A stretch of DNA of 64,000 nucleotides from an uncultured Verrucomicrobiota bacterium (GTDB lineage Bacteria > Verrucomicrobiota > Verrucomicrobiia > Limisphaerales > CAIMTB01). Each line of letters begins with the position of its first letter. The first letter of the stretch is position 1. Shown here one piece after another: positions 54,976 through 63,556 of this stretch. The notes under the pieces are model-generated. The model searched no databases, was not told the origin of the DNA, and was given only the letters and a program-made list of their open reading frames with translations. The stretch is from assembly GCA_964476125.1 (NCBI GenBank), contig CAYZAE010000012.1, positions 996 to 64,995 on the forward strand. Reading direction: 5' to 3'. The position numbers and the translations under genes were made by a program.

Positions 54976-55407
54976 TCATGAACGCCGGGGACGTCCCTGG
55001 TTCCGAGCCCTGACCTCACGGGTTGGAATCGACGGTCCCGGGGTCAGGAAGATCAGTCGGTTTTGCCAAGCCTCATTCCCTTTGCTTTCCCAGAGCCAAA
55101 CCAGCGCCCTCATGAGCCCGCCGATGTCGTTCGGCGGAATGGTTTGCTCGTCAACAAAGACGATGCCCCCAAGCTCACGCCCGGCTTCCAGAAGGTCCGA
55201 GGCGTGTTTCCAAAGAGTGCGTTGATCGTACGTCACCAGCGTCAACTGCTGCTTCCCTGCCTCCGTCAGGATCTCCGGATCCGGAACCCCTAAAAAGGTG
55301 CCGGACTGCCAGTCGTGGATGGACTGGATGTCCATCGACGTGCGTTTCGCCTTTGCCTGCAAGGCGACCTCCCTCGAGATGTGCTCGTCGAGCAGGAGCC
55401 GGAGCAT
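54976..55407 (-). CDS. DUF5615-type PIN-like protein (putative toxin)
   Basis: Start MLRLLLDEHIS (typical DUF5615 N-terminus) inside ORF 54976..55620. Lies immediately downstream of the DUF433 gene with a 1-nt gap. Confidence 0.7.
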   Translation of the reverse strand: MLRLLLDEHISREVALQAKAKRTSMDIQSIHDWQSGTFLGVPDPEILTEAGKQQLTLVTYDQRTLWKHASDLLEAGRELGGIVFVDEQTIPPNDIGGLMRALVWLWESKGNEAWQNRLIFLTPGPSIPTREVRARNQGRPRRS

Positions 55408-55408
55408 G

Positions 55409-55852
55409 TCACTTGCCTTTGAGCACGCTCGCCGGAACCTCAATCCGTTCCAGTGCCGGAACCAGCCGTGACAGCCTGGTGAAGTCGTGCGCCCGGCCAT
55501 CCTCGATGGCGCTTTGAGTCTCCTCCGGGAAAGCCGCCGCGTAGTTGAGCGCAGCGCGGATTTTTGAGACCGGCCAGGTGAGATGTTTGGCGCTCTTCTC
55601 GACGTCGTCGCCATACGCACGCGTGAGATTCACAACCTGCCACACAGCCACCCGTGTTCCTTCGACGTAGGCCTGCCGTCCCACCGGCGAATCGCGGAAC
55701 TCGATCATGGCGAAGTCCTCCCGCCGAAGTCCCTCATCCACCAGGCGCGCGGCAGTTTCCGCTGCGGATCGATCGAACCGCCGGGCGAGCCGTTTGAGGC
55801 TCTCCGCACGTTCGGTGGGCAATCGAAGGCTCAAGACGGTTGTGGCTGCCAT
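55409..55852 (-). CDS. RHH-DUF433 fusion protein (putative antitoxin)
   Basis: Start MAATTVLSLRLPTERAESLKRLARR (ribbon-helix-helix-like), followed by a DUF433-like region GRQAYVEGTRVAVWQVVNL...LTWPVSKIRAALNYA. Confidence 0.7.
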   Translation of the reverse strand: MAATTVLSLRLPTERAESLKRLARRFDRSAAETAARLVDEGLRREDFAMIEFRDSPVGRQAYVEGTRVAVWQVVNLTRAYGDDVEKSAKHLTWPVSKIRAALNYAAAFPEETQSAIEDGRAHDFTRLSRLVPALERIEVPASVLKGK

Positions 55853-56107
55853 GGTAGGTTTCTCTGGTTCAATACAACTGTAGCGACTGTAGACGTCCGC
55901 TTGGATTGAAGTCAAACGGTCCCCCACGCCCATCCCAAAACCTGAAGGGGTTTCGCACCCCCGACCCTATTGGAGCCATCCGGGAGGTTCACCCCAGAGG
56001 ACATAGAGAGCACAGAGGCAGCGAAGAAGAAGCCATCAGTAAAGGTGGCGATTGTTCGTTTCGTGGAATCGTGAAACCGCCGCGATGATCCGTTGGCGCG
56101 AAGTCGA

Positions 56108-58628: not shown

Positions 58629-58807
58629 TCATTGTTGTTGCATCTTTCCGGAGGTGGCGTCGGGCACGACGCCACCTCCGGCCACTTTCTGCGTTCCCTC
58701 CGGGATCGCCGGAGTCTGCCCGTTACTCCCAGTCATCGTTTGGATTGCGGGGAAGGAGGCTGTCCCGGAACCCGGAAGGGTGCCGGAGCCCGAGCCCACA
58801 CCCACAG

Positions 58808-58887: not shown

Positions 58888-59302
58888 ACCAGGATTGCTG
58901 GCCGGCGTTTTGGACGAGGGCGGTTTTGCCGTCCGGAGAGAAGCCGTGGAACAGGTGCTCAAACTGTTGCCGGATCACCTGACCTTCGAGGCCGAGCAAC
59001 CAGTTGCCAGGTGGGAAAATCCGGTAGGGTCGCCGCCGACGCCATCGGCACACCCTTCGAGCCAAAAATCGGGCCCACCTGGAAACGCCAGCGAACCTGA
59101 TCCGCCCCTTCTGTTACGACGGACACCATTGAGGTTTAGAGCGGGCTCGCGCCAACGATAAGAGCCGGACCACTGCGCTTCGATGCAGTCTCGACGTGGG
59201 CCTCCCACTCACCGGATACCTTTTAGCGCAGTCCCCTTTTCCAAGTAAGGTGCGATGCCGACGAACAATGTACCGGAAGGATTCCGGAATGGTGCTTGAG
59301 GT

Positions 59303-59319
59303 CCATTAAGACTTAATGG
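59303..59319. promoter_or_regulatory. Perfect palindrome CCATTAAG-A-CTTAATGG 19 nt upstream of the lipoprotein start codon (candidate operator or leader hairpin)
   Basis: Read directly. A second perfect palindrome ATTCCGGAAT lies at 59281..59290. Confidence 0.35.
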
Positions 59320-59337: not shown

Positions 59338-61311
59338 ATGGACTATTCCCTACACCTCGGCTTCGGCAGGATCTCATTTGCCCTGGCTCTGCTTCTCATG
59401 GCGGGCTGCGCAAGAGTCACTGTCCGCAAGGTGCCGACGCCTACCCAATACACTGAGTGGAGCGATCGGATGCAGGCCAAGGCGGATCGAATGGACGGAA
59501 TCCGGTTTTATCTACCCCGTCCGTTCGTGAACGTGTTCGAGTCGTTTCCTGTCCGGACCGACGTCTACCTAGTAAACGGGGTTGTCACCCCGGATAATCA
59601 GGGCGTGATCATTCGGGATGTCCGCCCGGGCAGTCCGCTGGCCAATCTCTTTGCGAGCGGAACGAACCAGATCACCATTCCCCGGACCGTCATCGCGCCC
59701 GCGAGCGAGCAGTCGGTCCAGGCCACGATTGCGACTCAGTCCGCCATCCTTTCCGCGCTCGCCGAGCCGGTGAAGCCTGCCCTGGCCCCGACGAACAACG
59801 TAGTGACCAGCGGCGCCAATCCGACGCCCAAGACCGAGTCCACCTCGCAAGGCGCCGGAGACCCGGCCCCGGGAATACCCGCACGCACCGGGATCAACGA
59901 GCGAAACATTGCCAACGACAACGGCGCGTATGCCTACCAACCGATGCGGGGGAATCTGGACCTGGCCTACCTGCCGGATTTCGAGGAGCAGTACGCGGTC
60001 GACAGTCATTCCGGCCTTGGGAATGCCAAGTTCTCATTGAATCTGGGGCAGGGTTGGAGTCTGCAAAGCCTCAACTCGCTATCGGATAACAGCGAGATCA
60101 ACAAGCGGATCTTCGACATCATCGATTCTTCGGTCGAACTGGCCAAGGCCGCAGCCAAGGCTTCCATGGGAATCCCGCCCATCCCGGGGATTCCGACGGA
60201 TGCCGTCATTACCCCGCAAAGCAGCGCACTCAAGGACGAACCGGCTGGGACACCGGTCACGCTCAAGATCGTAGTGGTGCACTACGCAGCCAAGGGGCTC
60301 TACCCCATCATCAAGCCGCGGGAACTTCAGGAGCGTCAGACCGGCAGGGCCATCACCAACCGCTTTCTCTACCTGAATCTTCACAAGCTCCTCGACGCCC
60401 AACCTTCTCCGGTGAGCGCCTTCGATCCCCAGGCCATCGCGAGAGCCCAAAAGGCAGTCGACAACGAGACCGGCAACTTCACGGTACCGCGGTATCCCTA
60501 CCAATACCTCAGCTTCCAAACCTTCCGCTACCTAGCAATTCAGGTCGTCCGCCCCGGCGACAAACCGTTCGATGCGCTTTACGACAAGACCGGCACCCAG
60601 GGCAGTGCGGGAGAAGCACAGCGCGCCGACCTAGCTTCCTTTATTTACGATGGACTAACCCGGAACGCGGCGAAACATGACAAGGACGCTGCCAAGGGGG
60701 CTGGCAAGCTCAACGAAAACGAGCGGGGCTTATGGATGCAAGAGATCACCAAGACGAAGTACCTTCCCAAGGTTCCCGGGTGCGAGAATGGAAAAGGGTG
60801 TTACGCGGTCGACAAGGCCATCTATGACATCGACAGCCGCGTGCTGACGGCCACGTTGGCCCATACGGGGGTTCCGGTACTGATGGGAACGAACAGACTG
60901 GAGGAACTGGTTGATGATCTGGCAAGGGACGCGTATCGACGTGTCCGTGACTCTATGAGCAAGACCGCCCCATCGGAAACCCCTCTCGACAAGGTCGTGC
61001 TGCAGTTCAGCACCGACCTAGGCAAACTCCTGACGGCGGATACTGCTGGCGCGGTCAGCGCCCAACTTTCGCAACTCAGCTATTCGTCGGGTACAAATGC
61101 TGTGATCAAAGCGACGCTGGATAAGGTCGTCACGGAGGAACCTCTCAAGATCACGGTGAAGCTCGAGACCTCGGGGAGCGTTGAAAAAAAGTATACCCGG
61201 GCTGAACTCCAAGACGCCATCGGCAAAGACTTGGAGAAGGCCCTCCAAAAGCCAAGCAAAGTGGTCGTTGAGATCAGCAACGCGACCGATGCCCTTGGCT
61301 TTCTGAAGTAG
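59338..61311 (+). CDS. Large hypothetical lipoprotein (657 aa)
   Basis: Lipobox LLLMAGC after MDYSLHLGFGRISFALA. No domain recognised. Lower GC and different codon usage than the core genes (by eye). First gene of a tight three-gene unit. Confidence 0.6.
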   Translation: MDYSLHLGFGRISFALALLLMAGCARVTVRKVPTPTQYTEWSDRMQAKADRMDGIRFYLPRPFVNVFESFPVRTDVYLVNGVVTPDNQGVIIRDVRPGSPLANLFASGTNQITIPRTVIAPASEQSVQATIATQSAILSALAEPVKPALAPTNNVVTSGANPTPKTESTSQGAGDPAPGIPARTGINERNIANDNGAYAYQPMRGNLDLAYLPDFEEQYAVDSHSGLGNAKFSLNLGQGWSLQSLNSLSDNSEINKRIFDIIDSSVELAKAAAKASMGIPPIPGIPTDAVITPQSSALKDEPAGTPVTLKIVVVHYAAKGLYPIIKPRELQERQTGRAITNRFLYLNLHKLLDAQPSPVSAFDPQAIARAQKAVDNETGNFTVPRYPYQYLSFQTFRYLAIQVVRPGDKPFDALYDKTGTQGSAGEAQRADLASFIYDGLTRNAAKHDKDAAKGAGKLNENERGLWMQEITKTKYLPKVPGCENGKGCYAVDKAIYDIDSRVLTATLAHTGVPVLMGTNRLEELVDDLARDAYRRVRDSMSKTAPSETPLDKVVLQFSTDLGKLLTADTAGAVSAQLSQLSYSSGTNAVIKATLDKVVTEEPLKITVKLETSGSVEKKYTRAELQDAIGKDLEKALQKPSKVVVEISNATDALGFLK

Positions 61312-61313
61312 GA

Positions 61314-62042
61314 GTGCGGCTCCTGCCACCCTGGAACTGCATGGCCTCGCACGCAATCATCACCGCCCAGGGCAGGCGCGAGGCGACCGGAACCATGACG
61401 TGCGCGGTCCACCTGCGGGACGGCAATGGCAGTTTGATGGACGGGACGTACCTCATCAGCTGCCTCCACGTTCTGGCCCTGGCCCAGGAGTACTATCCCG
61501 ATTTTGCCCCGGGAGCGAGCGTCCTCACCCCGAACGATTCAAAAGTGGTTGCGCATGCAACCGAGCATCGCGGCTTTCTCATCGATCAGTATTTGCATAG
61601 TTTTGATGCCGCTATTGCACGGGTGGTCGACGACGAGGCGCTGAAGCAGTTGGTTCCACCCGCCCGGCCGAAGGACTTTATCTCCAGCCCCGCTCAGATT
61701 CCTTCCCTGTACATGATCCAGGTTCCGGATCGGGAGCCGATCGTCGCGTCCAGCCGGCGGATTCTTCGCAGCGATCAGCTGTCGATTCCGTATCGAAGGG
61801 GCACGTCGATGGAGCGTCTACGGGTCTGGCACCGGTGCATCGTGGAGTCCGCCTGTGCTGGCGAAAAATCGACGGTGGGCGGCGACAGCGGATCGCCGGT
61901 GGTGAGCCTGAACGGAGACACGCTGATCGGCATGCACATCGCCGGCGCCGGCAATCTCTCCTATCTGATCCCCGCCTTCGACTTGCTGGATCCGGCCAAC
62001 TATTACGGTCTGTCCAGTCGGGGCCGAATTCACCTGGCCTAA
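61314..62042 (+). CDS. Trypsin-like (S1/chymotrypsin-fold) serine peptidase without signal peptide
   Basis: Candidate triad: His in LISCLHVLA, Asp in HSFDAAIARV, Ser in GGDSGSPVVSLNGDTLIGMHIAG. Starts 2 nt after the upstream stop (alternative ATG at 61341). Confidence 0.75.
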   Translation: MRLLPPWNCMASHAIITAQGRREATGTMTCAVHLRDGNGSLMDGTYLISCLHVLALAQEYYPDFAPGASVLTPNDSKVVAHATEHRGFLIDQYLHSFDAAIARVVDDEALKQLVPPARPKDFISSPAQIPSLYMIQVPDREPIVASSRRILRSDQLSIPYRRGTSMERLRVWHRCIVESACAGEKSTVGGDSGSPVVSLNGDTLIGMHIAGAGNLSYLIPAFDLLDPANYYGLSSRGRIHLA

Positions 62043-62080
62043 AGGCTCTACGGCTAACCTGGATCCACATTCATCCAACC

Positions 62081-63556
62081 ATGTACGACACGACAATCCT
62101 GGAGGTCGCGATCGGCGTTGCCTTCATCTACCTGCTCCTGAGCCTGATGGTAACCGCCATTTTCGAGGTCATCGCCACCAAGGCCCGTTTTCGCCACAAG
62201 GAATTGTGGCGGGGTGTGCAGTGCCTGGTAGGAGGAGCCACGGGAGGCGGGTCGATGGCGGGAGATCTCATGAATCACCCGCTGATCCGGTCGATTTCGG
62301 CTCCGGACAATGTCGTTGACAAGGTATCAGGGGTCGAGATTCGGGCACCGTCGAATCTTTCCGCCAACCTGTTCTCGACCGCACTGCTGGACCAGATCGG
62401 CCTTTCTGGTTCTCAGGTGGGACTGCAGCGGGAGATCGCGAAGGTCGTCGCGGGCTACCCCGACGCGCAGGGGAGCCCGGAGGCGCTGGCGGTTCTTGTG
62501 AAGGAGCACCTGTCGCGCCGTGTCGCTGTCCTTCCGGGCTCGACGCTAGCGGCGGACCTGCACCCAGCGCTCGCGGCCGTATCGACCTCGACCTCGGTTG
62601 CGGGTTTGAAGTCTGAACTCCTTGACATCCTCGGACGATCGGAGATGGCAATCCTTGATGTCCGACTGAAGGGCGGGAGTGGTGGTCCGACCGAGGTGCA
62701 TCGGACCCTGCGGGCGCTGGCGAGCGACGGCGTTGGCAACTTTGATGAGTTCAAGGGGCGAGTTGAAGCATGGTACGATGAAGGGATGAGGCGCACTTCG
62801 GGTTGGTACGCACGCAAGGCTCAAACGTGGGTTCTCGTCCTCGCGACGTTGCTGACCTTGGGGATGAACATCGACTCGATCGCGATCGTGAAGAAACTCT
62901 CCAGTGACTCGACGCTTCGACGGGCGCTGGTCGCTCAGGCCGAGAGTTTCGTCGAAGAAAATCGGCCTCACCTTGAGCAACTCGCGCCGGCCGCGCCCGA
63001 CGGGACCACGGTGGCGGTCGGGGACGGTGCAACGATCCTCTTCCATCCCAATCCAGTTTCGGCAGGAATGGCTTCCATCGGGAGAATCAGCCGGAGGACT
63101 CCTGCAAGCGTCGATTTGAGCTACCAACTGCGAGTCCTGGGATCGAACGCGTCGGTGGTCCTCAACACCAACCGAGTCATGATGCCCAAGGGCAACCATG
63201 AGGCGGACTTCATCGTGATGGTGGACACCACCAATCGTTCCTATTCCGTGTCCATCGAGGTCACGGACTTTCCTGGGATTGCAGGCGTTTTGAGGGTGAA
63301 ACCCGACCCTGGCCAGGAGTTGGAGCGGCTGAACGGGCGGATTGTCTCGCTGGGTTTGCCGATCGGTTGGGAATCCAACTCACCAATCAACATTTGGACG
63401 GCGATTCCCGGGTGGCTCATGTCGATTGCAGCCATTTCCTTGGGGGCGCCCTTTTGGTTCGACCTCCTGACGAAGCTCATGAAGCTTCGGGCACCTTCGG
63501 GGGCGGCGGCAGCCCCTGTGGTTCCCGGACCCGCTCCGGCGGCGTCCCCGAAGTGA
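62081..63556 (+). CDS. Hypothetical 3-TM membrane protein with conserved-looking C-terminal SLGAPFWFDLLTKL motif
   Basis: Start MYDTTILEVAIGVAFIYLLLSLMVTAIFEVIA inside ORF 61835..63556. TM helices at the N-terminus, the middle (TWVLVLATLLTLGMNI) and the C-terminus (IPGWLMSIAAISLGAPFWF). Pro/Ala tail. Confidence 0.6.
   Translation: MYDTTILEVAIGVAFIYLLLSLMVTAIFEVIATKARFRHKELWRGVQCLVGGATGGGSMAGDLMNHPLIRSISAPDNVVDKVSGVEIRAPSNLSANLFSTALLDQIGLSGSQVGLQREIAKVVAGYPDAQGSPEALAVLVKEHLSRRVAVLPGSTLAADLHPALAAVSTSTSVAGLKSELLDILGRSEMAILDVRLKGGSGGPTEVHRTLRALASDGVGNFDEFKGRVEAWYDEGMRRTSGWYARKAQTWVLVLATLLTLGMNIDSIAIVKKLSSDSTLRRALVAQAESFVEENRPHLEQLAPAAPDGTTVAVGDGATILFHPNPVSAGMASIGRISRRTPASVDLSYQLRVLGSNASVVLNTNRVMMPKGNHEADFIVMVDTTNRSYSVSIEVTDFPGIAGVLRVKPDPGQELERLNGRIVSLGLPIGWESNSPINIWTAIPGWLMSIAAISLGAPFWFDLLTKLMKLRAPSGAAAAPVVPGPAPAASPK

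Follow-up and report, generated by a model that had tools for sequence, protein, structure and literature searches.

A 64,000-nucleotide (nt) stretch of DNA from an uncultured Verrucomicrobiota bacterium (assembly GCA_964476125.1, contig CAYZAE010000012.1), referred to here as the window, carries at positions 59338-63556 three open, adjacent reading frames on the plus strand. They encode a large lipoprotein, a trypsin-like serine protease without a signal peptide and a membrane protein with three transmembrane (TM) helices and the motif GAPFWFDLL. Comparison with homologous loci showed that the conserved unit is not the trio but the lipoprotein-protease pair, and that the membrane protein is an occasional third gene. 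A first-pass annotation, made from the letters of the window, had described the three co-directional genes, and the open reading frames (ORFs), their motifs and the synteny elsewhere confirmed that description.

The pairing was evaluated in 25 genome loci and 54 metagenome loci that were fetched, subjected to ORF calling and searched with profiles of the three proteins. There were 73 distinct loci, of which 52 extended at least 900 nt downstream of the lipoprotein gene. The next co-directional gene encoded a homologue of the protease in 45 of these 52, and the junction was frequently a 4-nt overlap or a gap of less than 50 nt. All-against-all clustering of every ORF in the fetched loci revealed no other recurrent neighbour. 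The synteny elsewhere indicates that the gene arrangement is not a matter of chance. The first-pass annotation had raised the co-occurrence of all three genes as a point to be checked; the syntenic pair was upheld, but a GAPFWFD protein was found downstream of it in four loci only, those of the window, L012 (Verrucomicrobiota), L026 (Phycisphaerales) and L048 (metagenome), and about 90% of the cassettes are without it. The median pairwise identity was 44% for the lipoprotein core compared to 29% for the protease, the lipoprotein value being the higher in 443 of 459 locus pairs. Neither the pair nor either of the unannotated families was found described in the literature searched.

Lipoprotein genes without a protease partner were found at L024, L044-L047 and L028. 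On the chromosome of Candidatus Uabimicrobium amorphum (L010/L024, ~6.38 Mb), the lipoprotein homologue has no cytoplasmic protease partner and is located between a signal-bearing trypsin of 581-609 amino acids (aa) and several Peptidase_C14-WD40 proteins together with a giant CHAT-TPR protein.

The protease frame opens with a GTG codon at 61314, 2 nt past the upstream stop, which leaves no room for a signal peptide. In G002, another genome of this genus (public record L011/L012, a Verrucomicrobiota metagenome-assembled genome, MAG), the corresponding gene begins at the equivalent of the ATG at 61341. The protein was therefore taken as 233 aa, and the intergenic gap becomes 29 nt instead of the 2 nt reported at first pass. 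Residues 20-213 matched the Pfam Trypsin profile (PF00089) with 22.9 bits against a cut-off of 20.6 (E = 8.3e-5); the score against Trypsin_2 was under the cut-off of that profile, and the best sequence matches in the PDB were S1B-type proteases with E = 0.06-0.7. By sequence, the protein is thus assigned to the chymotrypsin fold (clan PA, S1-like) as a very divergent predicted member. The triad motifs comprise His43 (SCLHV), Asp89 (FDAAIA) and Ser183 (GDSGSP). When 20 partner proteases were aligned, the His and Asp were present in all 20 and the Ser in 19, the catalytic Ser of the twentieth (L019) being lost to the contig end. The Asp that precedes the catalytic Ser is substituted in L023 (GSSGS) and L016 (GHSGS). 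The window protease has no hydrophobic N-terminus, and a signal peptide was found in none of the 20 aligned proteins. The initial description of a protease that retains plausible His, Asp and Ser motifs and has no export signal was therefore borne out.

Most partner proteases are longer, 330-430 aa, and have an extra N-terminal domain of ~130-150 aa with the pattern W..L ... F.V.RK ... P ... VPTDV. This domain has no signal peptide and gave no Pfam match and, by profile search, no PDB match; a search for other proteins that contain it returned close relatives only. Homology of the domain to the cytoplasmic domain of the membrane protein or to the lipoprotein was ruled out (hhalign probability <1%). 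Short proteases without the domain are encoded in the window, in L012 and in L015, and in all three the gene of a membrane protein comes next downstream. At L015 (10085-11745, a Pseudomonadota MAG), the 236-aa short protease is followed, with a stop/start overlap, by a 318-aa protein with four TM helices. The latter has no sequence similarity to the GAPFWFD family, and it may be an analogous membrane partner.

A second, divergent gene of the protease family, encoding 370 aa, was detected at L019:4829-5938 and L056:2829-3938 (minus strand) with E = 1e-11 to the partner-protease profile. It lies ~2 kb upstream of the cassette, and a 622-aa protein with 13 TM helices is encoded between them.

The N-terminus of the lipoprotein consists of a hydrophobic leader (ALALLLMAG) followed by the lipobox Cys24. 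The lipobox Cys is kept in more than 90% of 110 homologues, usually in the form (L/V/I)xGC(A/S), and the product is accordingly classed as an exported bacterial lipoprotein, a predicted substrate of Lgt and LspA. A HMMER search of 1.84 billion cluster representatives yielded 686 clusters (50% identity) at E <= 1e-3 and 246 at E <= 1e-30. The homologues are 470-750 aa long, and every one is an unnamed "hypothetical" protein. Their hosts belong to the Planctomycetota (Brocadia, Phycisphaerales, Tepidisphaeraceae, Uabimicrobium), Verrucomicrobiota, Binatia, Desulfobacterales, Pseudomonadota and other groups. Searches with the lipoprotein were negative in Pfam, NCBIfam and PADLOC (E <= 1) and in PHROGs (E <= 0.1), and the profile of 110 sequences found no PDB entry.

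An AlphaFold (AF2) model of the lipoprotein, with a mean predicted local distance difference test (pLDDT) of 73, begins straight after the lipid anchor with the beta-rich conserved core, which is broken by low-confidence linkers at residues 142-179, 262-299 and 339-347. The alpha/beta C-terminal region is well predicted and is common only to the closest relatives. Foldseek found nothing at E < 1e-3 in the PDB or BFVD. The alignment of the 110 sequences has 34 invariant core columns, and many of the invariant positions are polar (R56, R61, R204, D208, D214, E217, Q218, Q238, S241, Q243, D250, N251, K326 and E329), which suggests either an enzyme or a very specific interface. PG_binding_1, located at the C-terminus of several homologues, was the only fused domain that Pfam revealed in 58 distant or long homologues. 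These fusions support a periplasmic, wall-proximal location of the family. The 853-aa metagenome homologue P0187 was annotated with Calx-beta and HTH_3/HTH_31, an odd fusion that is possibly a gene-call artefact.

The membrane protein has hydrophobic helices at residues ~7-31, 248-268 and 442-463. In the family alignment, the signature comprises the N-terminal TM helix (..IG..F.YLLLSL..), HPLI, PSYIP, the segment WF/Y..sM.RvSGWYkR (WFN.SMDRVSGWYKR) before TM2, LGLPIGW, and the invariant GAPFWFD in TM3. The window protein retains all 23 invariant columns of the alignment of 61 sequences. More than 600 relatives were found at E <= 1e-3 among the candidates scored. There was no Pfam match at E <= 1, none in NCBIfam, PADLOC or PHROGs, and none in the PDB by profile search. 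In the AF2 model (pLDDT 82, predicted TM-score 0.75), a long TM1 is followed by a helical domain, a very long helix that runs into TM2, two helices, an Ig-like beta-sandwich (residues ~315-406) and TM3. Foldseek matched the model to PDB entries via the Ig-like insert only. The profile and fold searches that the first-pass annotation had proposed for the three proteins thus identified the protease as a trypsin relative, gave no match for the lipoprotein and recognized only this insert in the membrane protein. Five Lys or Arg residues follow TM1, three follow TM3 and none precede TM3, which suggests an N-out/C-in topology. In the modelled structure, ~210 aa would then be cytoplasmic, and ~170 aa including the Ig-like domain would be periplasmic. 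The features of the locus are listed in Table 1.

Table 1. Features of the cassette and its leader (window coordinates)
Feature	Position	Strand	Details
Leader with two perfect palindromes	59281..59319	+	ATTCCGGAAT at 59281-59290; CCATTAAGACTTAATGG at 59303-59319
Lipoprotein, 657 aa (predicted)	59338..61311	+	Cys24 codon 59407-59409; beta-rich conserved core, residues ~25-430 (59410-60627); lineage-specific alpha/beta C-terminal region, residues ~460-657
Signal-less chymotrypsin-fold serine protease, 233 aa, short form (predicted)	61341..62042	+	His43 61467-61469; Asp89 61605-61607; Ser183 61887-61889
Three-helix membrane protein, 491 aa	62081..63556	+	TM1 62099-62173; cytoplasmic helical domain; TM2 62822-62884; periplasmic segment with Ig-like insert 63023-63298; TM3 63404-63469, including GAPFWFDLL 63443-63469; topology predicted

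The distribution of the cassette is sparse. The membrane protein and the C-terminal part of the lipoprotein were found in two of the 14 genomes of the genus, the window's own genome (G000) and G002. In a sample of 401 genomes drawn from the whole phylum (380 of high quality), the lipoprotein profile recovered G000 alone. The lipoprotein was on no viral contig of IMG/VR and no plasmid of PLSDB; the membrane-protein family gave two weak viral-contig loci in IMG/VR and one plasmid match in PLSDB. The flanks of the two congeneric copies differ. Those of G000 contain an amidohydrolase, a DUF433/DUF5615 pair and weak MazE-like and transposase fragments, and those of G002 an S8 peptidase and DUF1501; a remnant of the upstream S8 peptidase of G002 was searched for in the window, and none was found. 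The GC content of the three genes is 0.59-0.62 compared to 0.64 for the window, and at third codon positions (GC3) it is 0.73-0.76 compared to ~0.78-0.85 in most long genes of the window. The compositional difference from the core that was noted at first pass therefore holds, although the shift is modest. The best explanation is a self-contained accessory cassette that was acquired horizontally and is rare and patchily distributed over several bacterial phyla.

The DUF433/DUF5615 (PIN-like) gene pair, with modest Pfam scores, lies upstream on the minus strand of the window at 54976-55933. Downstream of the cassette, at L004:4963-5887, there is a weak MazE-like ORF and a weak DDE transposase fragment.

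In the gasdermin, Pepco/Trypco, EACC1, MBL and alpha/beta-hydrolase systems, a latent death effector is set free through cleavage by the protease encoded next to it (PMC12642450), and effector neighbourhoods with an adjacent trypsin-like, caspase-like or subtilisin-like protease are a recognized theme (PMC7159879). By analogy with these systems, the cassette is tentatively interpreted as a new protease-effector conflict module, of the defence or abortive-infection type, that spans the envelope; this is possible, and we hold it with clear reserve. The envelope arm would be formed by the lipoprotein, which would either sense that the envelope or cell wall is perturbed or act as a latent effector that damages the envelope; its disordered internal linkers would be candidate cleavage sites. 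The protease would serve as the enzymatic switch. For the short protease, which has no N-terminal domain, the N-out/C-in membrane protein may couple the two compartments, and activation would end in proteolysis that arrests or kills the cell. The three-helix protein is the natural candidate for a bridge in the window because domains are predicted on both of its faces and because it accompanies the short protease.

Several observations are consistent with a protease-effector module. The pairing is tight, the proteases have a conserved triad and are signal-less, and the trio recurs in G002/L012, L026 and L048, its membrane proteins coming from two separate clades of their tree. To these are added the membrane-protein genes behind all three short proteases and the periplasmic placement of the lipoprotein by its PG_binding_1 fusions. 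The candidate effector gene lies directly upstream of the trypsin-fold protease in one operon, as in the known modules, and the likeness extends to the rarity and patchy spread, the changing flanks, the disordered linkers of the candidate effector and the conflict-type neighbours of some loci, among them MBL and DUF2235 alpha/beta-hydrolase genes in two. The cassette differs from those modules in that the lipoprotein matches none of their effector families by Pfam, PADLOC or Foldseek, in that it is predicted to be Sec-exported and lipid-anchored rather than cytoplasmic, and in that no sensor domain, be it STAND, vWA or another, is present in the protease. The pair is not among the ten protease-associated effector families of PMC12642450. 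A Pepco/Trypco-trypsin pair or another catalogued defence system was considered and rejected, as neither Trypco1/2 (Pfam) nor a PADLOC match was found.

The conflict-type neighbours are concentrated in a few loci. At L091 the neighbours encode SIR2-TPR and SIR2-AAA proteins, a DUF2235 (Tle1-like) hydrolase and an RHS protein. The DUF2235 hydrolase, lipoprotein, protease and a 488-aa protein without assignment are co-directional (L091:7797-13887), with the RHS gene following. At L093 (5291-12202), an MBL-fold gene, a DUF2235 (Tle1-like) hydrolase gene and a gene for an unassigned 450-aa protein with two TM helices precede the lipoprotein and protease genes in the same direction. The two DUF2235 proteins share 45% identity, and the two MBL proteins are recognizably related (E ~1e-11). 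These clusters may be multi-effector arrays served by one protease. A KAP NTPase with four TM helices is encoded just downstream of the cassette in L092, a TIR_2 protein is a neighbour in L033, the Uabimicrobium locus has caspase-WD40, CHAT-TPR and secreted trypsin genes, and L009 has an integrase, a kinase, an SNase, an M78 peptidase and an MBL gene. When 126 neighbour ORFs from 34 loci were tallied, patatin occurred three times, in three loci, and most of the others belonged to unrelated housekeeping families; this tally is a lower bound because ORF picking in high-GC loci sometimes took antisense shadow ORFs.

Other results weigh against a conflict module. The housekeeping neighbours are many (YaeQ, ECH, SHMT and DUF3050 among them). 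Neither PADLOC nor PHROGs returned a defence-system or phage-family match for any of the three proteins, and, whereas most defence proteases have a sensor domain, none is recognizable in this one. The inner membrane is predicted to separate the lipoprotein from the protease, and as about 90% of the cassettes lack a membrane partner, it is hard to see how the mature lipoprotein could be cleaved directly. Furthermore, the GAPFWFD family is mostly stand-alone, which implies that the membrane protein has a function of its own. The conflict-system logic suggested at first pass is therefore only partly sustained: rarity, patchy spread, variable flanks and some of the neighbours agree with it, but the absence of a PADLOC match, the many housekeeping neighbours and the export of the candidate effector to a compartment other than that of the protease do not. 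The statement that no described system has this composition was corroborated by the searches of the literature, Pfam, NCBIfam, PADLOC and PHROGs.

A more specific form of the protease-effector interpretation would be a trans-envelope immune module, the first with a Sec-exported lipoprotein as the partner of a protease. The lipoprotein would report a breach of the envelope or cell wall, for example by phage adsorption or injection, and the three-helix protein would relay the signal to the sensor-less cytoplasmic protease; or the protease would license an envelope-destroying lipoprotein of a new fold. In either version, this proposal is a long shot.

Bacterial gasdermins resemble the cassette in that a protease lies beside a protein that possibly acts on the membrane, and in the caspase-WD40 and CHAT genes of the Uabimicrobium locus. 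However, gasdermins are cytoplasmic proteins of ~250-300 aa, whereas the partner here has 470-750 aa and a cleavable lipoprotein signal. A gasdermin-protease system was rejected on account of that signal and because no gasdermin fold was found in the PDB or BFVD at E < 1e-3.

It is also conceivable, though unlikely, that the pair is an exported toxin with its immunity protein: the protease would be delivered into the periplasm of competitors by a dedicated secretion apparatus, for instance a type VI secretion system (T6SS) or contractile injection system, and the lipoprotein would be the periplasmic immunity protein. In Tle-Tli and Tae-Tai pairs, a signal-less effector gene lies beside a Sec/lipobox immunity gene, and this layout, classic for effector-immunity pairs that act in the periplasm, is also that of the cassette. 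RHS, Tle1-like and patatin genes are nearby in some loci, RHS and Tle1-like genes in two of them, the few lipoprotein genes without a protease resemble orphan immunity genes, and the T6SS sheath protein TssC (PF05943) was found in four of ten other module-bearing genomes. However, TssC was not found in the other six of these carriers nor in G000, which is 93% complete. The putative immunity protein is large, and its sequence is less variable than that of the putative toxin, the reverse of known immunity proteins; its gene also comes first. The protease has no PAAR, MIX, Rhs, LXG or other trafficking domain. With no sheath gene found in G000 and no trafficking domain in the protease, membership of the pair among T6SS effector-immunity systems is not supported.

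An accessory physiological role at the envelope, without any part in conflict, was given the same low standing. The lipoprotein would bind or act on the wall or outer membrane, and its amount or maturation would be set by the dedicated protease, loosely as in NlpI-Prc, where a lipoprotein is likewise paired with a serine protease at the envelope. The PG_binding_1 fusions, the many conserved polar residues, which would fit an enzyme or a precise binding surface, and the ordinary metabolic neighbours of many loci are all in keeping with such a function. It is difficult to reconcile with the extremely sparse and patchy distribution of the cassette and with a context that shifts even within one genus. 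In addition, the protease is predicted to be cytoplasmic, whereas the known envelope quality-control proteases are exported. The first-pass annotation had named envelope-biogenesis families as a possible identity of the genes that flank the protease; these genes matched no such family, nor any other described one. The likeness to NlpI-Prc is itself limited: Prc, an exported protein, is a member of family S41 and NlpI a TPR protein, each is encoded by a core gene rather than in a rare mobile cassette, and there is no sequence or fold similarity to the cassette.

A separate question is whether the membrane-protein gene takes part at all, or whether it is a passenger on the same transferred fragment and the pair alone is functional. 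The large number of cassettes without it would be explained in this way, as would the large size of the GAPFWFD family, whose members elsewhere (Acidobacteriota, Bacteroidota and others) stand alone among unrelated neighbour genes. However, the four cassette copies, which come from two phyla, are all directly downstream and co-directional with gaps of 12-56 nt. In a maximum-likelihood tree, they group as two distinct pairs, each with full support, and both fall in a subclade of 19 members that includes stand-alone genes, indicating that the membrane protein was recruited twice, or once and then often lost. Within the genus, it is confined to the two cassette-bearing genomes, and the only other short protease, that of L015, is followed by a different membrane protein. 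Thus, a mere passenger seems distinctly improbable.

Should the protease-effector interpretation fail, what remains is just a conserved operon new to the literature. Even so, the pairing is held across several phyla, two of the three proteins have no described relatives by sequence or predicted fold, and the constraint seen in the 34 invariant residues is unusually strong for a gene that is both rare and accessory. If the cassette serves in defence or as a toxin system, the protease-effector logic would reach to an effector or sensor outside the cytoplasm, and one would have to ask how a protease in the cytoplasm communicates with a lipoprotein in the periplasm. The GAPFWFD proteins constitute a large unannotated membrane-protein family of several hundred clusters, for which this locus is the first functional lead.

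The leader of the cassette was also analyzed. The perfect palindrome that the first-pass annotation had noted before the first gene is genuine: the 17-nt CCATTAAGACTTAATGG has its sole copy in the window at this site, and it was matched by 0 of 100 shuffles, although it is not conserved 5' of the G002 copy (L012). From their sequence, the leader palindromes are possible operator or hairpin elements. No sigma-70-like promoter was detected in the leader, a scan for promoters and terminators gave no excess over shuffled sequence, and an Rfam scan of the locus returned no match.

Elsewhere in G000, two tandem Hcp-like (PF05638) ORFs were observed at C42:2166-3137 (L096/L097), although the search of this genome for a TssC/VipB sheath gene was negative. 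They could be part of a phage-tail-like or contractile injection element and not of a T6SS. Upstream of the cassette, a non-coding stretch of ~940 nt extends from the amidohydrolase gene to the lipoprotein gene, and within it, at 58648-58681, there is a perfect 15-nt inverted repeat, CCGGAGGTGGCGTCG / CGACGCCACCTCCGG, with a 4-nt loop.

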